From: Escherichia coli 042 | GTDB taxonomy: Bacteria > Pseudomonadota > Gammaproteobacteria > Enterobacterales > Enterobacteriaceae | DNA: 64,000 bases | Strand: one strand, 5' to 3' | NCBI RefSeq assembly: GCF_000027125.1 | Contig: NC_017626.1 | Shown: piece after piece, positions 1,040-50,498 of the stretch | Layout: every line of letters starts with the position of its first letter | How positions within the stretch are numbered: position 1 is the stretch's first letter | Notes under the pieces: model-generated | The model's input: only the letters and a program-made list of their open reading frames with translations | Told to the model about the DNA's origin: nothing | The model's database searches: none | Translations under genes and position numbers: made by a program

Positions 1040-2077
1040 ATGTTTTCCGCATTGCGCCACCGTACCGCTGCCCTGGCGCTCGGCGTATGCTTTATTCTCC
1101 CCGTACACGCCTCGTCATCTAAACCTGGCGATTTTGCTAATACTCAGGCACGACATATTGCTACTTTCTTTCCGGGACGCATGACCGGAACTCCAGCAGA
1201 AATGTTATCTGCCGATTATATTCGCCAACAGTTTCAGCAAATGGGTTATCGCAGTGATATTCGGACATTTAATAGTCGGTATATTTATACCGCCCGCGAT
1301 AATCGCAAGAGCTGGCATAACGTGACGGGAAGTACGGTGATTGCCGCTCATGAAGGCAAAGCGCCGCAGCAGATCATCATTATGGCGCATCTGGATACTT
1401 ACGCCCCGCTGAGCGATGCTGACGCCGATGCCAATCTCGGCGGGCTGACGTTACAAGGAATGGATGATAACGCCGCAGGTTTAGGTGTCATGCTGGAATT
1501 GGCAGAACGCCTGAAAAATACGCCTACCGAGTATGGTATTCGATTTGTGGCGACCAGTGGTGAAGAGGAAGGGAAATTAGGTGCTGAGAATTTACTCAAG
1601 CGGATGAGTGACACCGAAAAGAAAAATACGCTGCTGGTGATTAATCTCGATAACTTAATTGTTGGCGATAAATTGTATTTCAACAGCGGCGTAAAAACCC
1701 CTGAAGCAGTAAGGAAATTAACGCGCGACAGGGCGCTGGCAATTGCGCGTAGTCATGGAATTGCCGCAACGACCAATCCGGGTTTGAATAAAAATTATCC
1801 GAAGGGTACTGGCTGTTGTAATGACGCCGAAGTTTTCGACAAAGCCGGTATTGCCGTACTTTCGGTAGAAGCAACAAATTGGAATCTTGGGAATAAGGAT
1901 GGTTATCAGCAACGCGCAAAAACAGCTGCATTCCCTGCGGGAAATAGCTGGCATGACGTAAGACTGGATAATCAACAACATATTGATAAGGCACTTCCAG
2001 GAAGAATAGAACGTCGCTGCCGTGATGTTATGCGGATAATGCTACCGCTGGTGAAGGAGCTGGCGAAGGCGTCTTGA
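1040..2077 (+). CDS. iap: alkaline phosphatase isozyme conversion aminopeptidase
   Basis: 345-aa ORF with signal-peptide-like N-terminus (MFSALRHRTAALALGVCFILPVHASS) and M28-type aminopeptidase motifs (HLDT, SGEEEG); position between cysD and the CRISPR array. Confidence 0.85.
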   Translation: MFSALRHRTAALALGVCFILPVHASSSKPGDFANTQARHIATFFPGRMTGTPAEMLSADYIRQQFQQMGYRSDIRTFNSRYIYTARDNRKSWHNVTGSTVIAAHEGKAPQQIIIMAHLDTYAPLSDADADANLGGLTLQGMDDNAAGLGVMLELAERLKNTPTEYGIRFVATSGEEEGKLGAENLLKRMSDTEKKNTLLVINLDNLIVGDKLYFNSGVKTPEAVRKLTRDRALAIARSHGIAATTNPGLNKNYPKGTGCCNDAEVFDKAGIAVLSVEATNWNLGNKDGYQQRAKTAAFPAGNSWHDVRLDNQQHIDKALPGRIERRCRDVMRIMLPLVKELAKAS

Positions 2078-2097
2078 TGGGTTTGAAAATGAGAGCT

Positions 2098-2553
2098 GGG
2101 AGTTCTACCGCAGGGGCGGGGAACTCCAAGTGATGTCCATCATCGCATCCAGTGCGTCCGGTTTATCCCCGCTGACGCGGGGAACACACATGAATGTCGG
2201 TTCAGACCGTGTTTTTACCCGGTTTATCCCCGCTGGCGCGGGGAACACTCGTCGGCGTCTTCACCCGTCGCATAACGCTGCGGTTTATCCCCGCTGGCGC
2301 GGGGAACACTGCCAGCGTGTCGGCGTGCGTTTCGCGCTGCCCGGTTTATCCCCGCTGACGCGGGGAACACTCGATCGATAGCTGCGCGATACCTGCGGGG
2401 ATCGGTTTATCCCCGCTGACGCGGGGAACACGGCAGCTATCGAGGCAGTTATCGAGCGTCGCGCGGTTTATCCCCGCTGACGCGGGGAACACCAAAGGAC
2501 ACCGGGAGGCACCCGGCACCGCAGCGGTTTATCCCCGCTGACGCGGGGAACAC
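2098..2553 (-). CRISPR. CRISPR array (CRISPR2.1-type, cas-adjacent): 7 canonical 29-bp repeats plus one degenerate leader-distal repeat, 7 spacers of 32 bp
   Basis: Repeat CGGTTTATCCCCGCTG(A/G)CGCGGGGAACAC at about 2159, 2220, 2281, 2342, 2403, 2464, 2525 with exact 61-bp period; degenerate copy at about 2098-2126. Transcription inferred on the minus strand from the leader at 2554-2649. Confidence 0.95.
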
Positions 2554-2649
2554 ACTAAGCATACATAACTGTTTTTAAAAAAATTTATTCCGCATCAACA
2601 ATCTACCAACTAAATTAAAACATTTCCTTATTTTTAAAGAACAGATAAC
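2554..2649 (-). promoter_or_regulatory. CRISPR leader (AT-rich) between array and cas2
   Basis: AT-rich about 95 bp abutting the last perfect repeat; shares the motif CAATCTACCAAC with the second leader at about 28409-28500. Confidence 0.7.
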
Positions 2650-3859
<1,210 letters not shown>

Positions 3860-3863
<4 letters not shown>

Positions 3864-4510
3864 GCCTCTGCTCCGGGTTTGATCAGCATCAGACCACAGC
3901 CGAACGCGCGGCTTTTGCCATACCCCTGGCTCAGACGTTGCAGAAATAACCCAGGATCGGTGACCGTAAGCATCCCCGTATAATCCACGCTACAGAACTG
4001 GATCAGTTGCCGGGAGTTTTCCCGCCGCAGTTGCTGTTGTCGGTAGGCATCGACCGAGGTATCCAGTAGTGTAAAACCGCTTCTTTCCCCCTGCGCTGCC
4101 AGCCAGTCCAGCGCCGCCTGTTGTTGATGCAACCAGACATCACGCCCTTCCGCCTGCCCCCTCACCTGCCGTTTCGCCTCTATCAGCAGATCGTGGCGCT
4201 TACCCGCTTTACAGACTGTTGGATTCGCCCGCAGGTTGAAACAAAGGGATTGTCCGGTACGCAGCTCCGGCGCAAATGACCGGCATTCGATGGTGAACGT
4301 ATCACTTTCCGCCGGGCGTTCCTGCGACAGGACAAAAAAGCGAAACGCGCCCTGGAGTTCTTCCCGACGATAAAGAAATTGCCTTTCTTTGCCACCCGGG
4401 AAAAGATCCCACAGCCACTGATGCATCACATATTCACCGCGATCCACCAGATGCAGCAACTGCGCAGGCGAAAGCTGGCCGGTATGTAAGGTTATTCTTG
4501 AGAGGTACAT
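3860..4510 (-). CDS. casE: Cas6e / CasE (Cse3) crRNA endoribonuclease
   Basis: Track ORF 3860..4648; I place the start at the internal Met (MYLSRITLH..., about 4510), which is preceded by AGGAGG. C-terminal glycine-rich segment GCGLMLIK typical of Cas6e. Confidence 0.85.
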
Positions 4511-5238
4511 GGTTCCTCCTTGCTGAGCCACGGCCCCTGATTGACGGTGCGTTCCCCAAACAGCCACTGCTGGCGATTTAAAGGAACATCCCGGCGGCGC
4601 AATATTTTGCTCGCGACCAGGCCGTCGTGCTCCCCTTCCCACCAGCATTCATCCTGAAGTTTCGGGAGTGAGACTTTCAGTTCGTGGAAACGATCCTGAT
4701 ACTGTTGGTATGCGTTACGTAAGACATCAGACGCGTTGCCTTCGAGCAGTAACGGCGCAAGTGGTAACGCCAGCGGATGACTTTTTCGCCCCAGATAAAG
4801 CGGAAAAACCGGATGACGTAAATCTTCCTGCAACTGTTCGAGGCTGTAAGGCGCATCGGGGGTTGTTGCCACCGCCACCATCCACCAGGCGTCGGTGTAA
4901 TAGTCGCGCCGGGAGATAATCGCGCTTAGCAGTTCAAGATTACTCAACTCTTCGCGACGGCTGAAATAACGCGCTTTACGCACCTCTTTTGGCATCTGGA
5001 CCGTGTGATAATCCCGTGCCCAGCGCGGGTTACGGCTGGCGCAAACCACCAGTGAATAGTGGCGATTAAACGCGTTTAAGCGTTCGGTATCATCACGCCG
5101 AATCCCTACCCCGGCAGCCAGCAGCCCCAGCAATGCTGAGCGCGAAGGCAGTTCATGGGTATGACGCACTTCACCGGGGGCATCGACGCCCCAGGATGCC
5201 ATCGGCCCATGAAGCTGAAAAATTAGATATTGGCTCAT
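4492..5238 (-). CDS. casD: Cas5e / CasD
   Basis: 248 aa, MSQYLIFQLHGPMASWGVD...RSALLGLLAAGVGIRRDD matches the Cas5e N-terminal motif; operon position. Confidence 0.9.
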   Translation of the reverse strand: MSQYLIFQLHGPMASWGVDAPGEVRHTHELPSRSALLGLLAAGVGIRRDDTERLNAFNRHYSLVVCASRNPRWARDYHTVQMPKEVRKARYFSRREELSNLELLSAIISRRDYYTDAWWMVAVATTPDAPYSLEQLQEDLRHPVFPLYLGRKSHPLALPLAPLLLEGNASDVLRNAYQQYQDRFHELKVSLPKLQDECWWEGEHDGLVASKILRRRDVPLNRQQWLFGERTVNQGPWLSKEEPCTSQE

Positions 5239-5248
5239 AAGCCGCCCC

Positions 5249-6304
5249 TTACGCGCAGATAAAGTCCAGCACGTCCTTCATGCTTCCCTGTTTGTTCATC
5301 ACGTCAAAACTTGTGTAATCGGTCTTCTGTTCGTAAACCTTATTCATGTTTTCGCGAAGCGTCGTAATACGCTGCACCGCTTCATCTAACTGCCCGGTGC
5401 CGTTAATGGGTTCATAAAAAGCCGCCGCCAGAGAGCGCGGTTGTTCGATACCTTTTTCTGCCATCGCCCAGGAGGCGTAGGCACGACTGGCAAAGCTGTT
5501 TTGTTTACCGGTTGGGGAAACTTTAAACGCGGCTTCCGTAAAGGCGCGCAGGGTCTGATTAGCCAACGCTTCGTCTCCGCCGAGGTTTTCTACCAACAGA
5601 TCTTTATCAATGCAGATATAGGTGTAGAAAAGTGCTGAACCGAATCCGGTTTCACCAAGATGCCCGGCACCGGCATCTTCAGAAGCCTGGCGCAAATCAT
5701 CAACGGCGGTGAAAAAATCATCTTCGACAATCGTTTCACTGACACCAAACGCATGCGCAACCTGGCAGGCGGCTTCAACATTAAACTCGGGTTTATTCGC
5801 CAGCATACGACCAAACATAGCGATATCTACCGCCATGCGATCTTTACGTAACAAAGCGAGATCTTCCTCTTTTGGCGCGCGCTTTTCTTCGGCCAGTTGA
5901 TGGGCCAGCGCTTTTACGGCGTCAAATTCTGCCGGGCTGATATGGACTAGCTGTTCAGTTTCGGCGTTAGTGAGCGGATCTTTTGGTTTTTTGTCGTTTT
6001 TAGCTTTCCCAAGATAATCCGCAATTTTTGCCGCCCATTCGATGGCTTTTTTCTCTTCGATGCCTTTCTCAATCAGGATAGTTGCCGCCTCACGCGCAAT
6101 ACGCCCACTGCGAATACCAATATGGCCCGCCAGTGCCTGTTCAAAATGTGCAGAAGTGCGCCACGCACGTTTCAGACTTTGTGAGGAAACGCGCAGACGC
6201 GTTGCTCCACCCAGTACCACAGTTTTTGGCGCACCGGTGTCATCACGGTTAAGGTTGGCAGCAGGGTAAGCGGTTAACAAATGAAGCTGAATAAATGTCG
6301 TCAT
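5249..6304 (-). CDS. casC: Cas7e / CasC (Cascade backbone)
   Basis: 351 aa, MTTFIQLHLLTAYPAANLNRDDTG...SSQSLKRAWR is the Cas7e signature; operon position. Confidence 0.92.
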   Translation of the reverse strand: MTTFIQLHLLTAYPAANLNRDDTGAPKTVVLGGATRLRVSSQSLKRAWRTSAHFEQALAGHIGIRSGRIAREAATILIEKGIEEKKAIEWAAKIADYLGKAKNDKKPKDPLTNAETEQLVHISPAEFDAVKALAHQLAEEKRAPKEEDLALLRKDRMAVDIAMFGRMLANKPEFNVEAACQVAHAFGVSETIVEDDFFTAVDDLRQASEDAGAGHLGETGFGSALFYTYICIDKDLLVENLGGDEALANQTLRAFTEAAFKVSPTGKQNSFASRAYASWAMAEKGIEQPRSLAAAFYEPINGTGQLDEAVQRITTLRENMNKVYEQKTDYTSFDVMNKQGSMKDVLDFICA

Positions 6305-6318
6305 GAGATAGTCCTTTA

Positions 6319-6855
6319 TTAATTTTGTTCGTTATCGGCGTCGCCAGCCTGGTAATATTCCAGCGCCCAGCGGATACGGATAAATTCTGTTGGCCGCTGC
6401 TGGCGGCGGTGATGATTGAGCAGATCGTCGCTCTCCTGGCACCAGCGGAAAATATCGTCTGCCAAAGAGATAAGATTGACGGAACCATTTAATAATTTGA
6501 CCGCGCGACGTAACTGGCGCAGTAATTCATCCGGCGTTTTGACTGCCGACAGGCGAGTAAAACGCCCCTCAGACATTACCGCCGCCAACTGCGCGGCAAA
6601 AAGCTGCCGTTCATCAATGGCTTTTACATTGGCGGCAACGGCGGCAACCAGCGCCAGTGCGGTAAAACGCCACTCCTGTGATTCAATTTTCCACAACGTG
6701 TGGGTCTGCATCAGCAGAGAACGAAACCCTTCTGACAGACAAACATCATTAACCGTTGTGCTACGCCGCAGACTGGCACGATTGCCTCGTTTTTCCTGCA
6801 ACTCTTCGTGCCATTTACGCAGCGTGGCTTTGTGCTCCTCTTTTACAATACTCAT
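6319..6855 (-). CDS. casB: Cse2 / CasB (Cascade small subunit)
   Basis: 178-aa ORF between casA and casC with ATGA-type overlap to casA; assignment mainly by operon position and size, sequence divergent from my memory of K-12 CasB. Confidence 0.75.
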   Translation of the reverse strand: MSIVKEEHKATLRKWHEELQEKRGNRASLRRSTTVNDVCLSEGFRSLLMQTHTLWKIESQEWRFTALALVAAVAANVKAIDERQLFAAQLAAVMSEGRFTRLSAVKTPDELLRQLRRAVKLLNGSVNLISLADDIFRWCQESDDLLNHHRRQQRPTEFIRIRWALEYYQAGDADNEQN

Positions 6856-8414
6856 TCAGCAGCCTCCTGCTTTTTCTCCCTGGCGGCTTTAGCACTTTGC
6901 TTCTCCGCCGATGTTGTAAAATATTTCTTGCGCGCGGTCATGACGCGTTTCAAATCAACGGGCTCATAAGGATTAGTGAATACACGCTCGTCAAAATCCT
7001 GACGCGCGAATAACCAAATTTCCTTTTGCCATTTGCCGAGTAATTCATCCGCATCCTGACCTTCTTCAATTTGGCGCACTAACCTCAGGAAGCGATGCTG
7101 AGTTTTGTTCCAGAAGTCGATATCCACAAAACTAAAATCACCCCGAGCACCTTTTGGATCGGAGAACCAGGCTTCTTTCAATGCACTCCGTAACAGACTT
7201 AGAATCCGTGAAGCCGTTTGCGCAACCAGCCGCAGCTTCGGTATCTGGCCTTCTTTTTTATTGAGCAGCAGCGGGAAATGGTGTTCGTACCAACAACGGG
7301 CTTTCATGTTGTCAAAATCATAACCAAATCCCCACAGGCCCACTTTTGTCTGCTTCAGACTGCTGGCATTAAAGAGTTTCACCACCAGCGCGGGAAGTTC
7401 CGTATTGTTTTCTGACTTACCCGTTTCGATAAGACCTAACCAGTCGCGCCAGATTAAACCGCCCGGTTGTGGTTTAACGGAGTAAAACTCACCGCCCTCT
7501 TTAAGTGGTACACGGTAAGGCGTTAAGGGATGCTGCCACATGGCATAATTCGCACCATAATTTTTGGTCGTCATCAGGCTCAGGAGCGAGTCATTCTGCT
7601 CGCCGCAAATATCGCAGTTGCCGACTGTCGTGGTATTAAAATCAATACGAATACGCCGCGGCATTCCCCAGTACGCCTGGAGTTTATTGACCTGATCATG
7701 GGTTACCACCGCACCGGCCAGTTCGCTGGTACGCGTCGGGCCAAGCCAGGGGAAAATCAGATCGTCAAATTTTTTGGGTAGCGGTAAGTCGGCTTCATCC
7801 TGCGGCATCACATTGAGCCACAGTTTGCGCCACAAGGGTGTTTGTTGATTGCCCTGATATTCCTGTAATTCAATCAGAGTGGTCATCGGCCCACCGCCGC
7901 GTAAACCGGTGCGATAGCCTTTGCCGCCTGACGGCGCATTTAACTGTAGGGAGAACAGAGCTAACGCAGAACAATGTGGGCACAGGTATTCCGTTACACC
8001 ACGCTTGATAAAGTGGTCTTTATTAAACTTCGTTGTTTGAGCGCCGGGAATCTCAGGCAGTAGCGAAGCGACCGGAATTTTATCTCCGGTGAGCGCCTCG
8101 AAATCCTGCATAAATGAAGGGGAATCTGGGCCAAACTGGAAAGCATGTTCTAAAGATAGCAATGCTTCCCGTAGCTTTTCAGCTTCCAGTCCGTCTTCCC
8201 AGATATCATCCCAACGACGATGATCTTTTGGCGCGAAGCTGGTTTGTAGTAGCCCCAGCAAAAACTGCCACGCCGCTCCCTGGAGATCTGCCCGCGGCGC
8301 AGCGATATCGACAACATTTTCATCCGCCAGATCGACTGGCGCCAGTTTGCCTGTTGTTCCGTCTTTAAAACGAACGGGCAACCACGGGGTTGTCAGAAGT
8401 GAAAACGAGTTCAT
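6852..8414 (-). CDS. casA: Cse1 / CasA (Cascade large subunit)
   Basis: Track ORF 6852..8483; I favour the start at MNSFSLLTTPWLPVRF (about 8414) with GAGAGG 6 nt upstream; the 8420 and 8483 starts remain possible. Size about 520 aa fits the Cse1 family. Confidence 0.8.
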   Translation of the reverse strand: MNSFSLLTTPWLPVRFKDGTTGKLAPVDLADENVVDIAAPRADLQGAAWQFLLGLLQTSFAPKDHRRWDDIWEDGLEAEKLREALLSLEHAFQFGPDSPSFMQDFEALTGDKIPVASLLPEIPGAQTTKFNKDHFIKRGVTEYLCPHCSALALFSLQLNAPSGGKGYRTGLRGGGPMTTLIELQEYQGNQQTPLWRKLWLNVMPQDEADLPLPKKFDDLIFPWLGPTRTSELAGAVVTHDQVNKLQAYWGMPRRIRIDFNTTTVGNCDICGEQNDSLLSLMTTKNYGANYAMWQHPLTPYRVPLKEGGEFYSVKPQPGGLIWRDWLGLIETGKSENNTELPALVVKLFNASSLKQTKVGLWGFGYDFDNMKARCWYEHHFPLLLNKKEGQIPKLRLVAQTASRILSLLRSALKEAWFSDPKGARGDFSFVDIDFWNKTQHRFLRLVRQIEEGQDADELLGKWQKEIWLFARQDFDERVFTNPYEPVDLKRVMTARKKYFTTSAEKQSAKAAREKKQEAAE

Positions 8415-8511: not shown

Positions 8512-11169
8512 TCAACCAACCTTGCCAGTCAATCCTTCCATAGCCGAATACCCGCAACTTTCGTCATCGGTGACTAAAATCACGTTTGCCATCTCCGGAT
8601 CTTGCCGCTGTTCAATGCACCACTGCCTGAACGCATCCCCTTCCAGTAAAGAAAACTCATCCCGATGTTTTTTCCACCAGCTTCGACGCACTCTGACAAC
8701 GCTCATTTCCCATGCGTGAGCACCGGTGGCATAAGGCTTCACCACACCGTCAATACAGGTAGCCAGCCACAGGGAAACAGATTCCTCAGCCAGACGTGTC
8801 GACAGCTTTTCCGGAAGGTAATCGTTGATATTGGCGGCATAGCCAGGCTTGAAGTTCAGGACAAACTTTTTAGCCATTGCGCGATCGCAGTAATATTTGC
8901 CCACTTGCTCCTGCTCACTGCGGGCAAATCCTTCCGGCATTGCCACGTCTTCACCGTAGACTGATTCAATAAGAAGCCGGGCTGCGTGTGGCATCTGAAT
9001 AGCGCCTTGCTCACGCAGCACACGCTGCGTCAGCCAGATTCGCCCATGATCGGGGTAGACATATGCACTGTTACGCATGGCGCTGCCAAACCATTCGTCA
9101 CCCGGAGAGTCATCCCAGACGGGAGCCAGAATCAGCAATTCAGGAGGGGAACGCTCATCTTTTCCGTCACGCTTTAACTGACCATTAATATCGCGGATAT
9201 GCCGCTGTAATCGCCCCGCCCGCTGGATTAGCAAATCAATGTGGGCCAGGTCGGAGATCATTTCGTCCAGGTCACAATCGACGCTCTGCTCTAATACCTG
9301 AGTACAAATAAGGACTTTTCCGGCACGCTGTGAGTTACCTTCTTTACCAAAGCGTGCCAGCGTTTCCGTTTCAATTCGCTGGCGATCGCTAAAAGCAAAG
9401 CGGCTATGAAAAAGTGAAAGGCTGGAAGCGGGAATGACGCCGCGGGCAAGCAGCTGACGATGAACCTTAATAGCGTCATCGACAGAATTCCGGATCCAGG
9501 CGATGCATTTCCCCTGACTTACCGCCGATTCGATATGTGCAATACATTCTTGTTCGCTATGAAGCCAACCCACACACACGTTGCGCTCAACTTCTTTGCG
9601 CGTCGCTACCCGGTGCGAATGCAAATCGGATTTCGTGACATGCGTCAGCCATGGGTAATCATCCTTTTCAAGGAACGGAGCTTCTTGTTGGCCCTCTGCA
9701 CCACGCGCAAAGGCAGCGACGAGTTTGTCGCGCTGCTGTTGAGATAACGTAGCAGAAAGCAAAATGATACTGTTTCCGCCACGCGCCTGCCGCTCAATCA
9801 ATCCTTCAAGAATGCACGACATGTAAGCGTCACAGGCATGGATCTCATCAGCCAGCAGGATTTTTTTACTCAACCCCAGAAGCCGCAGATTATTATGTTT
9901 GAACGGCATCACCGCCATCATCGCCTGATCCAAGGTGCCGACGCCAATTTCAGCCAGCAACGCCTTCTTGTTACTGTCGGCAAACCAGGCCGCACATCCC
10001 TGGCTGAACGCTTGTTCATCCGGTTCTTCTGACCCGACTAAATCACCGGACCAGAGTGATTCATTGAAGCGGTCCATTAATGTATGGGCACTGTGTGCCA
10101 GCACCAGGCTGGGGCGGGATTCTGGCGAATAGAAAGCAAGCCAGGTTTTGACCAGCCGATCGTACATGGCATTGGCCGTTGCCATTGTTGGCAGGCCAAA
10201 AAACAAACCCTGAGCTTTCCCCGCAGCCATCAACCTGTGGACCATGATAAGCGCTGCTTCTGTTTTACCTGCGCCAGTCACATCCTCCAGAATAAATAAC
10301 TGTGGCCCAGGCTGGCTGATATCCAGATCCAGTACCTTTTGCTGTAACGGTGTCGGGTGCTCAATAAAAGGAAACAGTGTATTAATTCCGGTGAAAGGCG
10401 CGGTTTGTGCTTTTGGAGGAAAGACGGTTAAGGCGTTTTGAGCCTGAACTAAAGCCTTCTGCCAGTAATCTTTAATATCCATTGCCTGTGCAACGCGTGG
10501 AAAAAACCGCGTTGACGATCCCGTCCAGTCTGCGAGTACGACGGTTGCAGAGATATACCAGGAAAGTTGTTTTATAAGTTCAACGCCCTCGTCATCATCC
10601 CAGAATGTGGGGATCTCGATGAGCGGGAACAGTGTCTTGATTGCAAGGAGAAAATCTCGTGCGGCAGCTTTGTCTTCAGGCAGAAAATTATCCAGTTCAT
10701 CCATACGATCAGGAGGCTGACCATGATGCCCGGTAGTCATGGGCATCCACATCTCTATTACCCGTTTAAGTTTGCGGGGAGAGAGTGAAGATGAAGGAAG
10801 CAACTCTTCACATTCAATTAAATAATGATTCCACAACCAGTAGCCCAGCGTTGAATGAGAGATCTTTTCGTAATTTTTTCTTGCACTTTCCGGAACCTTG
10901 AGCTGTGGGTGCAGGTAAAGTTGCTGAAAAGAGCGGGCAAATTTTCCAGTATCGTGCCAACACAGCAACCAGGCGAAAAATTGTGCTGCCTGCTCCGTGT
11001 CAGCGATACCTAATTGACGAAAATAGTCAGCCAACCCGAAACAGTTGTTTTTGACCATTAAATAACCCGTCGCGGCTACATCCAGCGAATGCCAGCAAAG
11101 TAGATGATAGTCGTCGCCGCCCTCTTTCTCGCCACGTCGGGTTTTTCCCCAGAAATCAAAGAAAGTCAC
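8512..11169 (-). CDS. cas3: Cas3 helicase-nuclease (HD domain + DEAD/DEAH helicase), type I-E
   Basis: 885 aa; N-terminal HD motif (HSLDVA...H), helicase motif I (GAGKTEA), DExH-like LADEIH, motif VI QRAGRLQR. Confidence 0.93.
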   Translation of the reverse strand: MTFFDFWGKTRRGEKEGGDDYHLLCWHSLDVAATGYLMVKNNCFGLADYFRQLGIADTEQAAQFFAWLLCWHDTGKFARSFQQLYLHPQLKVPESARKNYEKISHSTLGYWLWNHYLIECEELLPSSSLSPRKLKRVIEMWMPMTTGHHGQPPDRMDELDNFLPEDKAAARDFLLAIKTLFPLIEIPTFWDDDEGVELIKQLSWYISATVVLADWTGSSTRFFPRVAQAMDIKDYWQKALVQAQNALTVFPPKAQTAPFTGINTLFPFIEHPTPLQQKVLDLDISQPGPQLFILEDVTGAGKTEAALIMVHRLMAAGKAQGLFFGLPTMATANAMYDRLVKTWLAFYSPESRPSLVLAHSAHTLMDRFNESLWSGDLVGSEEPDEQAFSQGCAAWFADSNKKALLAEIGVGTLDQAMMAVMPFKHNNLRLLGLSKKILLADEIHACDAYMSCILEGLIERQARGGNSIILLSATLSQQQRDKLVAAFARGAEGQQEAPFLEKDDYPWLTHVTKSDLHSHRVATRKEVERNVCVGWLHSEQECIAHIESAVSQGKCIAWIRNSVDDAIKVHRQLLARGVIPASSLSLFHSRFAFSDRQRIETETLARFGKEGNSQRAGKVLICTQVLEQSVDCDLDEMISDLAHIDLLIQRAGRLQRHIRDINGQLKRDGKDERSPPELLILAPVWDDSPGDEWFGSAMRNSAYVYPDHGRIWLTQRVLREQGAIQMPHAARLLIESVYGEDVAMPEGFARSEQEQVGKYYCDRAMAKKFVLNFKPGYAANINDYLPEKLSTRLAEESVSLWLATCIDGVVKPYATGAHAWEMSVVRVRRSWWKKHRDEFSLLEGDAFRQWCIEQRQDPEMANVILVTDDESCGYSAMEGLTGKVG

Positions 11170-11340
11170 AATGTTTTTATCCTTCAGTAAAACTTAAAGG
11201 ATATTTACGCATATATTAAAAATTATCTGTGATATATATCGTTCAATAAAACATTTACATTATGAATAATCAAATAGTTTTCATCCGTAATATATATGAA
11301 TAATAAACATAGGCATAATATTCACATAAACAATATAAAT
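11170..11340. promoter_or_regulatory. AT-rich cas3 upstream region (probable promoter / nucleoid-protein-bound region)
   Basis: About 170 bp of very AT-rich sequence immediately 5' of the cas3 start; H-NS silencing of E. coli cas promoters is established knowledge, its application here is inference. Confidence 0.5.
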
Positions 11341-11406: not shown

Positions 11407-11559
11407 CTACTTCTTCGATTCGTAAGCGAGAACTGCCTTAAACTCCATACCACGTTCTCTGATACTCAACTCACACAACGAGTCGCCTACCATCAGCGTG
11501 AATCCCAGTACTGTACAACACAGTACGATGATTGCCACAAGGGCATATTTTGTCAGCAT
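11407..11559 (-). CDS. Hok/Gef-family type I toxin, 50 aa (HokE-like), unannotated small ORF
   Basis: Hand translation of the minus strand gives [50 protein letters not shown]; single TM helix, conserved Cys and C-terminal AYE motif, GGGAGG SD upstream, GC hairpin just 3' of the stop. Below the track size cut-off. Confidence 0.8.
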
Positions 11560-11823
11560 GTCTTGCCTCCCTGCAAAGAAGAGACTAACATTCGAATTGC
11601 TTAGGTTCGAACGCTGGCCTCAGGTTGATTGAAATATCGCCTGGGGCTTTTGTCCATCTGGAACCTCGCGAATGCTTAACGCCAGACAGCCTCAAGCACC
11701 CAACGCCATTCTATACCTGTTAATTTTCCCTGCGATGTTCACCTTTAAATGCCGGAATGCTGCTCGCAAAATAAAAACGCCCCCATCATTTCTGACAGAG
11801 GCGTTTAATTTATCCGGCAATAT

Positions 11824-27620: not shown

Positions 27621-27667
27621 GTGAGGAAGACCGGGCGGGAAACTGCCCGGCCTGAACATACCTGAAT

Positions 27668-27804
27668 GGTTATCCCCGCTGACGCGGGGAACATAAGTTC
27701 GACAACTTAAAAAATGATAACAAGTCCGGTTTATCCCCGCTGATGCAGGGAACATAATAAAAACTTTAACTAGTTCGGTTTATCCCTGTTTTTACAAGGA
27801 ATAT
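27668..27804 (-). CRISPR. degenerate CRISPR remnant (CRISPR2.2-like): about 3 decayed repeats
   Basis: Decayed repeat copies at about 27668 (GGTTATCCCCGCTGACGCGGGGAACAT), 27727 (CGGTTTATCCCCGCTGATGCAGGGAACAT) and 27776 (CGGTTTATCCCTGTTTTTACAAGGAATAT); spacing 59 then 49 bp. Confidence 0.7.
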
Positions 27805-28257
27805 TAACTACACTCGATGTCTTTAGAATAAAAGACAATACGAATCGCACTTTATCAATTTTCACTTAAAGTATGAACTGGATATCTTTATTCATAAGAA
27901 CTATTCATCAACAGCGTATAGAGGCGATTATGTAAAATCACTCATTAGCCTCAAAACAAAGACAAATTTCCAGATTTATTACTTAATCAATGAATAATAA
28001 GCTTAAAAAATACACTGTTATTCTAAAGAAAAAATTAACAGGCATTAATTAATATTAAAAAAATAATATATTAAAATTTCTTAACGATTTAAGAATCATA
28101 CAAATAACACTTTGATTAAATTTAATTTTTTGTATCGATAATTGTGAACTTCTCTGGCATGGAGAACTATTTTGAACATGAGGTGTTACGTGGATATGTT
28201 GCTTATTACAAGTACTGCTAATATAAAAACTTGAGAAAGAGATAACGGGTTATATGG

Positions 28258-28408
28258 TGGTTTATCCCCGCTGGCGCGGGGAACTCTTGGCATAGGCGCT
28301 ATAGCGGCGCTCTGTGTCCGGTTTATCCCCGCTGACGTGGGGAACTCAAAGACAAATTTCTTTGTTCCTATGGCCAGACCGGTTTATCCCCGCTGGCGCG
28401 GGGAACTC
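28258..28408 (-). CRISPR. CRISPR array (CRISPR2.3-like): 3 repeats, 2 spacers
   Basis: Repeats at about 28258, 28319, 28380 with 61-bp period, consensus CGGTTTATCCCCGCTGGCGCGGGGAACTC; the middle repeat carries GACGTGGGG. Confidence 0.9.
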
Positions 28409-28500
28409 TCTAAACATAACCTATTATTAATTAATGATTTTTTAAGCCAGTCACAATCTACCAACTTTACAGTATCACACAAACAACACATCCATTATGT
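28409..28500 (-). promoter_or_regulatory. CRISPR leader for the 28258-28408 array
   Basis: AT-rich, abuts the terminal repeat, shares AAACATAAC and CAATCTACCAAC with the 2554-2649 leader. Confidence 0.65.
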
Positions 28501-28746: not shown

Positions 28747-29418
28747 TCAGGCAATATTTAAATATTTATGCGTTTGCATCGACAAACGCCAGTTGCGCGC
28801 AATGCACGTATCGATACATAAACGAGTAGCATCATCCTTTTGGCTAATCGGCTGCAGTGCAATGACTCGCGGTTTATCATCGGTCAGTGTTGCCAGTAGT
28901 TCATCCAGTGCTTCAATATCACGTACGCGTCCCACTGGATGCTTGATTTCGTTGGCTCGCTCCAGTGCCTGTGACAACACTTCATAGCCGCCGCGCATGT
29001 TCAGCTTTGGCGATACGGTAACCCAGGTATTCGGTGTGCAGCGTACCTCATGAGTACCACTGGTTTCGATCTGGCAGCTAAAACCGTTCTTTTCGAGCAG
29101 GTCAGTCAGTGGCAGCAAATCATGAATGCAAGGCTCACCACCCGTAATCACCACATGCCGCGCGGTGTATCCCTGGCGACCAATGACAGCCAGCAAGTCT
29201 TCACTGCTCGCCGCCCCCCACTTATCACTCTCTTTGGTCTTCGCCAGAATGCTGAAAAGGGAGACTTCCCGATCCTCAAGCTTTTCCCAGGTGTGTTTGG
29301 TGTCGCACCAGGCACAGCCAACCGGGCATCCCTGTAAACGAATAAAAATGGCGGGGACGCCGGTAAAGTAACCCTCACCTTGCAGGGTCTGGAACATCTC
29401 GTTAATCGGGTACTGCAT
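28747..29418 (-). CDS. queE: 7-carboxy-7-deazaguanine synthase (radical SAM)
   Basis: 223 aa, MQYPINEMFQTLQGEGYFTGVPAIFIRLQGCPVGCAWCDTKHTWEK (radical-SAM Cys cluster). Confidence 0.93.
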   Translation of the reverse strand: MQYPINEMFQTLQGEGYFTGVPAIFIRLQGCPVGCAWCDTKHTWEKLEDREVSLFSILAKTKESDKWGAASSEDLLAVIGRQGYTARHVVITGGEPCIHDLLPLTDLLEKNGFSCQIETSGTHEVRCTPNTWVTVSPKLNMRGGYEVLSQALERANEIKHPVGRVRDIEALDELLATLTDDKPRVIALQPISQKDDATRLCIDTCIARNWRLSMQTHKYLNIA

Positions 29419-29590
29419 AGCATTCTCTGTGAAGTGGATAATTGTTAATTATTGCAGATCCTGCCACAACAATCATGTCTTATTAACATTCTGTTACAGG
29501 CAGGTTTAAGGCAAAAAGTGGATGAGATCATAAAGAATAAAATGAAGCGGCGTATTATGTTTTAAGGAATTAATTAAAAGGGACATAGAC

Positions 29591-50096: not shown

Positions 50097-50141
50097 AAAG
50101 CAACCTCAATAAGAAAAACTGCCGCGAAGGATAGCAGGAAT

Positions 50142-50498
50142 AAAAAAAGGGAGCACTGTATTCACAGTGCTCCCGGTTCGTTTCGCAGCATTCCAGCTAC
50201 TTTTGTTGCTCCCTGCTCATCCTTGACAACTTTTCCTCTGGCCTTGCGGCCAATCGTTCATCCTGAACTATTGCTTCCTGCTCACACCACCCCGATGTGA
50301 TACTTCATCCTGAAGTGTCCCTGGCCTTCCTGGCCCACCGAATCATCCTGACCGGTTCTCATTCTCCATCCTGGAGGTGTCCTTTAACGCGTCCTGCGTC
50401 ATCCTCTTCGCTTCATCCAGAAGCCTTTCCCTGAAACACCATCCTGGTGTGTCCTTCAGAAGTGTCATCATCCTGATGTTCACTTCGTTGTCTGACTC
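50142..50498 (-). ncRNA. csrB: CsrB regulatory sRNA (CsrA-sequestering)
   Basis: About 357 nt with many CAGGATG / AGGA motifs (seen as CATCCTG on the + strand); 5' end GAGTCAGACAACGAAGTGAACATCAGGATG; 3' terminator GGGAGCACTG...CAGTGCTCCC plus U-tract. Track ORFs 50085..50300 and 50377..50565 lie inside it and are not coding. Confidence 0.95.

Follow-up and report, generated by a model that had tools for sequence, protein, structure and literature searches.

AACAC and AACTC repeats in two type I-E CRISPR arrays of Escherichia coli 042: a further instance of the published CRISPR-A/CRISPR-T polymorphism

Two CRISPR arrays of Escherichia coli 042 (NC_017626.1) carry repeats that differ by one base near their end, and this raises the question whether the arrays were shaped by different cas cassettes and whether the resident proteins serve both. 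The stretch of DNA analysed here, hereafter the window, is 64,000 nucleotides long and corresponds to the E. coli iap-CRISPR-cas-cysHIJ...ygcE-CRISPR-queE (ygcF) region in the K-12 plus-strand orientation. It is 99.4% identical to strain CB6837 over the first 12 kb and 100% identical to strain A10 over a 7-kb central stretch, and the distal array is placed between ygcE and queE by synteny with annotated relatives at 99-100% identity. A Hamming-distance scan with the type I-E repeat consensus demonstrated that the difference is real. The cas-adjacent array, CRISPR2.1 (2159-2553, minus strand), consists of six spacers and seven intact 29-nt CRISPR-A repeats that start at 2159, 2220, 2281, 2342, 2403, 2464 and 2525 with a period of 61 nt. 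All seven end in GGGGAACAC (...AACAC), and the variable base of the leader-proximal repeat (2525-2553) is at 2552. The distal array, CRISPR2.3 (28258-28408, minus strand), holds three CRISPR-T repeats of 29 nt at 28258, 28319 and 28380 that are separated by two 32-nt spacers (61-nt period). These repeats have 1-3 mismatches to CGGTTTATCCCCGCTGRCGCGGGGAACWC and all end in GGGGAACTC (...AACTC); the terminal repeat at 28258 begins with TGG and agrees with the one found in other strains, and the leader-proximal variable base is at 28407. Between the two lies the CRISPR2.2 remnant (27666-27816, minus strand), which has no leader and comprises two decayed repeats ending in AACAT (27666-27694 and 27727-27755), a third, more decayed copy that begins at 27788, and one fixed spacer. 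Besides the window, 9 of 10 sampled E. coli genomes contain this spacer, AAGTTCGACAACTTAAAAAATGATAACAAGTC.

The leaders of both arrays are on the high-coordinate side, from 2554 onward, where the leader abuts cas2, and from 28409 onward. Degenerate terminal repeats and old spacers common to several strains occupy the low-coordinate ends, while new, strain-specific spacers are found on the leader side. Protospacers are followed by C-W-T in plus-strand orientation, matching the published convention. Together, the leader position, the order of old and new spacers and the C-W-T flank indicate that the arrays are read from the minus strand, which makes the variable base nucleotide 2 of the repeat in RNA sense (GUGUUCCCCGCG... 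versus GAGUUCCCCGCG...). At the Rfam gathering threshold the arrays had no match and hence gave no independent strand call, and scans of both leaders with the sigma-70 consensus returned matches at or below chance expectation. The only additional site within 9 mismatches of the consensus on either strand of the 64 kb is a degenerate 'anchor' repeat of CRISPR2.1 (2098-2126, minus strand; GGGAGTTCTACCGCAGGGGCGGGGAACTC), which has 9 mismatches and is in the 61-nt register of the array. Together with a fossil spacer (2127-2158) it is kept in 19 of 19 sampled genomes. Its plus-strand end is AACTC, T-like at position 2, so the cas-adjacent locus of the window also holds a T-like copy. The oldest unit of both CRISPR loci has a T at position 2.

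The AACAC/AACTC difference is the already published CRISPR-A/CRISPR-T polymorphism of E. coli type I-E repeats. Both forms were defined by Diez-Villasenor 2013 (PMC3737337) with the consensus ...GGGGAACWC, and Swarts 2012 wrote the repeat as GWGTTCC...; in RNA sense it reads GWGUUCCCCGCG..., with W as nucleotide 2. At CRISPR2.1, A repeats were found paired with leader-A and the cas-EO cassette, and T repeats with leader-T and cas-EK (Diez-Villasenor 2013, PMC3737337). According to Almendros 2014 (PMC3903273) the primary cassette of the species is E1, which was replaced in a minority of strains by E2, the cassette of K-12. E2 arrived as a module with its leader and at least one 'L2-specific CRISPR'. 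The same study found the CRISPR-II leader to be identical across E1, E2 and cas-less strains and CRISPR-II to be older than the cassette replacement. In Salmonella, Klebsiella and Cronobacter, the reported form is A.

The cas2, cas1, cas6e, cas5, cas7, cse2 and cse1 genes of the window (2650-8414, minus strand) all have open reading frames and encode an O157-type I-E system. Cas6e, Cas5, Cas7 and Cse1 are 96-97% identical to their O157 counterparts and 21-36% identical to those of K-12 (Cas6e 96% versus 27% to K-12 CasE, Cas7 97% versus 30%, Cse1 97% versus 21%). Cas1 and Cas2 share 98-99% identity with O157 and 85% with K-12, and cse2 shares 83% with O157. Judged by these identities, the cassette is the majority or primary E. 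coli variant E1 (cas-EO, O157-type) with its L1/leader-A. The sok antisense RNA of a hok/sok locus lies between cas3 and cysH (11544-11701, minus strand; Rfam RF01794, 109.6 bits); hok/sok occurs in all strains but E2 carriers (Almendros 2014, PMC3903273). A further Rfam match in the window is CsrB (50139-50498, minus strand). In cas3 (8512-11212, minus strand), alignment to O157 cas3 revealed a 1-nt insertion at nt 24 (near 11189) that shifts the frame at codon 8 and leads to a stop at codon 11, and an 885-aa open reading frame restarts at a GTG, a possible restart. Annotations of A10, CB6837 and GPEC1031 also list this gene as frameshifted. Owing to the lesion, the lineage may have reduced interference and priming, so the description of the arrays as active-looking needs a caveat.

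The leader of CRISPR2.1 (2554-2649, minus strand; plus strand ACTAAGCATACATAACTG... / ACTAAGCATACATAAC...) belongs to the type named leader-A or L1 in the literature. Over the 75 nt compared it is identical to CB6837 and A10; it differs from O157:H7 by a few SNPs and is unlike the L2 leader of K-12. The AT-rich CRISPR2.3 leader (28409-28500, minus strand; plus strand TCTAAACATAACCTATTATTAATTAATG...) equals the K-12 CRISPR2.3 leader over the first ~60 nt. At CRISPR2.3 a leader SNP tracks the repeat variant, with TTTACAG next to T repeats and TTTATAG next to A repeats, an association that suggests old haplotypes. A duplicated dinucleotide was observed at cognate repeat-leader junctions, AAC-AC|AC-TAAG for A/L1 and AAC-TC|TC-TAAA for T/L2 and for T with the CRISPR2.3 leader (window 2549-2558 and 28404-28413, and other loci). 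It is absent from A-type CRISPR2.3 (AC|TC) and from CRISPR2.3 of A10 (TC|AC). This duplication may be related to the 2-nt-shifted insertions of Diez-Villasenor 2013.

The concern that the resident Cas6e might discriminate between the arrays was founded on the variable base lying in the 3' flank of the repeat hairpin, but this is the wrong side: the base sits 5' of the hairpin. RNA folding gave the same hairpin with a 7-bp stem and a 4-nt loop (U5-A22 to C11-G16) at -15.1 kcal/mol for the A and the T variant. On its 3' side, the variable base is followed by the stem at a distance of 3 nt and by the Cas6e cut at ~19 nt. The exact position of this cut is established (Brouns 2008; Jore 2011). Cleavage leaves the last 8 nt of the repeat as 5' handle (Swarts 2012), and array transcription and crRNA processing have been demonstrated experimentally for K-12 only (Swarts 2012). 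A different substitution does affect the fold: the middle distal repeat (28319-28347) has a C>T change at 28338 that creates an A.C mismatch in the stem, with a folding energy of -9.7 instead of -15.1 kcal/mol. By this prediction the spacers flanking it could be processed less by Cas6e. The mismatched repeat is also present in CB6837 and is the leader-proximal repeat in GPEC1031. A second repeat polymorphism, GCTGGCGCG versus GCTGACGCG, is located in the hairpin loop and varies within arrays (window 2159-2553, NY1601, A10); from the oldest to the newest cas-adjacent repeat of the window, the succession of variants is A G G A A A A. The loop pattern AGGA...A and the number of 19 repeats are common to NY1601 (E2, T-type) and A10 (E1, A-type), yet these two arrays have zero spacers in common. 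A concerted A-to-T change over one shared array, with 19 T repeats in NY1601 and 19 A repeats in A10, was rejected on account of this lack of a common spacer.

The distribution of the variable base was determined by junction BLAST against 5,426 complete E. coli genomes, using paired queries of 37-38 nt in which 26-27 nt of leader were joined to the final 11 nt of the repeat next to it and which differed only at the variable base. Cas-adjacent arrays with the L1 leader carried A in 2,698 of 2,698 cases (1,811 exact matches and 887 with leader SNPs) and T in none. With the K-12-type L2 leader, at least 1,221 of 1,222 carried T (1,198 exact) and at most one carried A. The distal junction was found in 4,550 of the 5,426 genomes. 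Exact matches there numbered 958 for T and 2,300 for A, and the one- and two-mismatch bands imply ~2,127 T (~47%) versus ~2,421 A (~53%). The variant is therefore a perfect cassette marker at CRISPR2.1 and a balanced polymorphism (~50:50) at CRISPR2.3. The original suggestion, according to which the two arrays were shaped by different cas cassettes, holds only in that the variant is tied to the cas/leader module at the cas-adjacent array and that cassette exchange in E. coli is documented; for the distal array of the window it fails.

Reading both loci in 22 sampled genomes revealed each distal variant with either cas type, four combinations in all. E1 together with distal T repeats occurs in the window, CB6837, A10, O157:H7, GPEC1031, NR329 (17 repeats), 10035776-3 (9 repeats) and NCTC9112 (aaa, then t x11), and E1 with distal A repeats in 2013C-3513 (ttttaaaaaa), EC14 (ttt, then a x16) and, from junction matches alone, E2865. 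The E2 cassette is accompanied by distal A repeats in K-12, 504239, DDG206, 1532WA and BE2-5 and by distal T repeats in NY1601 and 2018-05-5CC. Distal T repeats were found with E1, with E2 and in cas-less strains. In this survey of repeat variants across cas types, which had been proposed as a check, the distal variant was independent of cas type. Both variants also occur within single arrays, as in both arrays of K-12, in BL21, 2013C-3513, EC14, 504239, NCTC9112 and others, with patterns such as ttttaaaaaa, ttt followed by a x16, aaaatttttttt, aaa followed by t x11, tatt and t a t t t.... K-12 mirrors the window, its CRISPR2.1 reading one A then 12 T and its CRISPR2.3 one T then six A. Since the variants often co-occur in this way, the repeat difference cannot be taken as a sign of different cassettes. 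Next to the old spacers S03 and S08, some strains have a T repeat and others an A repeat, which shows that repeats have undergone deletion or recombination and that the base has changed both ways. Among 20 E. coli distal arrays sampled, the window included, 19 have T in the oldest CRISPR2.3 repeat. T-type and mixed arrays are also found beyond E. coli, in Pseudocitrobacter, Enterobacter sp., Leminorella and Entomohabitans. A contig labelled Pseudocitrobacter vendiensis (NZ_CALSBS010000035.1, 1802-7290) carries an E1 cassette 96-98% identical in amino acid sequence to that of the window and an L1 leader, and its array changes over from T (10 repeats) to A (19 repeats). Either the module was transferred horizontally into an array of T type, or the contig is mislabelled or contaminated.

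Are both variants used? In adapted clones of K-12, 67% had gained spacers in CRISPR2.1 and 74% in CRISPR2.3, and immunity was indistinguishable (Swarts 2012); by our repeat scan these K-12 loci are T and A, respectively. K-12 Cas1-2 also extends CRISPR2.3 of BL21-AI, a published adaptation substrate (Diez-Villasenor 2013, PMC3737337), and the leader-proximal CRISPR2.3 repeats of C41(DE3), a BL21 derivative, are A. For E1, the evidence comes from a close relative. Both distal spacers of the window are also present in CB6837, which has two more leader-proximal spacers flanked by T repeats (CB6837 piece 29331-29423). These two match the tail-sheath gene (gene 22) of phage P1 at 100%, on the same strand and 458 bp apart, with CAT PAMs. 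Scanning a whole P1 genome with the 312 unique sampled spacers identified two further spacers against P1 that have a CAT PAM, each located in the A-type array of an E1 strain. CAT is the commonest natural PAM of leader-A arrays and was selected in 0 of 68 insertions by K-12 Cas1-2 versus 11 of 45 by O157 Cas1-2 (Diez-Villasenor 2013, PMC3737337). CAT PAMs in the T array of CB6837 and in A arrays thus point to the same E1-type machinery filling both. The spacer pair of CB6837 has the pattern expected of primed acquisition and suggests that the system was recently active in the lineage despite the cas3 lesion. As to whether the resident proteins process and extend both arrays equally, K-12 proteins use both alike and E1-type acquisition has added T repeats in this lineage; the word equally applies to the K-12 proteins only.

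Among the phage and plasmid matches listed, no protospacer was found for the two distal spacers of the window. The newest cas-adjacent spacer (2493-2524) exactly matches many ~90-100-kb plasmids of E. coli and Salmonella, for example pMS6198C, with a CTT PAM, and it matches P1 with two mismatches. Similar plasmids are matched by the oldest cas-adjacent spacer (2188-2219), with a CAG flank. The cas-adjacent spacers of the window are a subset of those in the 19-repeat array of A10 (A10 piece 8928-10054), of which spacers 0, 1, 2, 4, 15 and 16 are kept. CRISPR2.1 of the window is shorter than that of A10 and lacks its newest spacers, which implies internal deletions between repeats.

Distal arrays that do not carry the variant of the resident cassette's own module can be long, with 17 T repeats in the E1 strain NR329 and 20 A repeats in the E2 strain 1532WA; in the E2 strain BE2-5 the annotated CRISPR feature extends over ~2.35 kb, of which 9 repeats were read. 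Such arrays argue against a strong incompatibility between variant and cassette. We had considered that T-type distal arrays are stunted in E1 strains, as they comprised 2-8 repeats in the first 11 genomes, and rejected this given the 17 repeats of NR329, the 9 of 10035776-3 and the 11+3 of NCTC9112.

We consider it highly probable that the window contains the standard CRISPR2.1 and CRISPR2.3 arrays of an E1 strain and that the difference between them is the known A/T polymorphism, copied from the leader-proximal repeat and essentially neutral. A at CRISPR2.1 with T at CRISPR2.3, as in O157:H7, is the ordinary native E1 configuration. With each spacer insertion Cas1-Cas2 duplicates the leader-proximal repeat, whose base then passes to all later repeats. 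New repeats are replicas of the repeat adjoining the leader (Yosef 2012, as summarised by Diez-Villasenor 2013), and the second repeat is not the template (Swarts 2012). Under templated copying, uniformity within an array is not a matter of chance, and a base change in the first repeat would become visible as a step along the array. The first repeat of CRISPR2.1 directly adjoins the leader, lies ~100 bp from cas2 and is exchanged with leader and cas genes as a unit; being inherited with the module, A travels with E1/L1 and T with E2/L2. CRISPR2.3 is older than the exchange and has one leader type; there, rare mutations and deletion or recombination events among repeats reshuffle the alleles regardless of the cassette. 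The variable base is not part of the hairpin and is distant from the site of Cas6e cleavage, and both cassette types extend and use both variants, so the difference should be essentially neutral; for the E1 Cas6e and Cascade we infer this neutrality. The explanation draws on what was observed here, namely the anatomy of the arrays, the frequency of both variants across genomes, their mixture within arrays, a hairpin that does not change with the variant and the CAT-PAM spacers in a T array, and on repeat copying and the equal use of both arrays in K-12, which are taken from the literature.

It is conceivable that the distal T array was built under a K-12-type E2 cassette that was later replaced by the resident E1, the T repeats being its footprint. 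T is indeed the variant strictly linked to E2/L2 at CRISPR2.1, cassette exchange at this locus is documented (Almendros 2014, PMC3903273), and the absence of protospacer matches for the two distal spacers of the window means that their PAMs leave room for E2-type acquisition. However, the direction of exchange is the reverse, since E1 is the primary cassette and E2 a later replacement in a minority of strains (Almendros 2014, PMC3903273), and the window keeps hok/sok, which E2 strains lack. A T terminal repeat at CRISPR2.3 is common to E1, E2 and cas-less strains. Moreover, a cassette imprint predicts T at CRISPR2.3 of E2 strains, whereas 5 of the 7 sampled have A. As copying is templated, a cassette cannot impose a variant of its own, and the T array of CB6837, the 99.4% identical relative, gained two CAT-PAM spacers, which points to E1-type acquisition. 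Taken together, this makes an E2 origin of the distal array very improbable. The possibility that the pattern is an assembly or sequencing artefact or a chance resemblance is practically negligible, as it recurs in independent complete genomes (CB6837, A10, O157:H7 and others) and in thousands of junction matches.

A co-adaptation of cassette and repeat, in which cognate Cas1-Cas2, Cas6e or both read position 2 and leader bases, selection pairs A with E1 and T with E2, and a mismatched distal array works worse, would account for a pairing without exception in ~3,900 genomes and for the duplicated dinucleotides at the cognate junctions, AC|AC for A/L1 and TC|TC for T/L2. It could also be seen in the outcome of K-12 Cas1-2 acting on an A repeat with leader-A, where 7 of 18 insertions were aberrant and three of these were displaced by exactly 2 nt (Diez-Villasenor 2013, PMC3737337), although the aberrant insertions could stem from the leader or from plasmid copy number according to the authors. 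Against it, in K-12 the mismatched A-type CRISPR2.3 is used no less than the T-type CRISPR2.1, the A-type CRISPR2.3 of BL21-AI serves as substrate for K-12 Cas1-2, mismatched distal arrays are common and can be long (NR329, 1532WA, BE2-5), and the hairpin is unaffected by the variant. Selection for cognate pairs would likewise produce perfect linkage at CRISPR2.1, but the first repeat abuts the leader and physical adjacency suffices; we therefore dropped selection as the cause of this linkage and regard co-adaptation as quite unlikely. In the 2013 test repeat and leader were changed together (Diez-Villasenor 2013, PMC3737337), which allows for a subtle effect of the base on fidelity. Position 2 and the first leader bases (the WC|WC junction) might influence, depending on the cassette, the register or fidelity with which spacers are integrated, so that T-type CRISPR2.3 of E1 strains would be extended with a different rate or error profile than A-type CRISPR2.1. 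We hold this to be unlikely; if true, a natural single-base 'mismatch' of an integrase substrate would be maintained in about half of E. coli. A 2-nt slipped integration that converts A to T was dropped as a candidate, as it would lengthen or shift the repeat and not substitute a base.

The polymorphism has practical uses. Position 2 of the cas-adjacent repeat is a perfect one-nucleotide marker of the E1 or E2 cassette in ~3,900 complete genomes, and the variable base is a natural lineage tracer for the copying of the leader-proximal repeat. Automated scans should not count the variant base as a sign of cassette replacement or incompatibility. Publications from 2010 to 2014 already cover the polymorphism, its name, its link to the two cas-E cassettes and the functional use that K-12 makes of both variants. 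Beyond this literature, the present analysis adds larger counts and the CAT-PAM evidence that E1 machinery fills T arrays.

Compared with CRISPR-A and CRISPR-T as published (Diez-Villasenor 2010, 2013; Swarts 2012), the window shows the same position, the same bases and the same consensus CGGTTTATCCCCGCTGRCGCGGGGAACWC, as well as the same combination of A repeats, leader-A and O157-type cassette at CRISPR2.1 with T repeats at CRISPR2.3 as in O157:H7-like strains. There is no substantive difference, and the window is one further instance. It likewise agrees with the E1/L1 module (Almendros 2014) in its L1 leader, hok/sok, O157-like Cas proteins and conserved anchor repeat beside iap, and bears no sign of the exchange of E1/L1 for E2/L2, whose replaced state is represented by K-12 (E2). 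CRISPR I and CRISPR II of K-12 MG1655 correspond to the window in both loci, the CRISPR2.3 leader, the CRISPR2.2 remnant and the terminal TGG...AACTC repeat. However, the variants are reversed in K-12, with T at CRISPR2.1 and A at CRISPR2.3, its Cascade proteins are only 21-36% identical, and its E2-associated CRISPR2.1 retains an old A repeat behind the T repeats.
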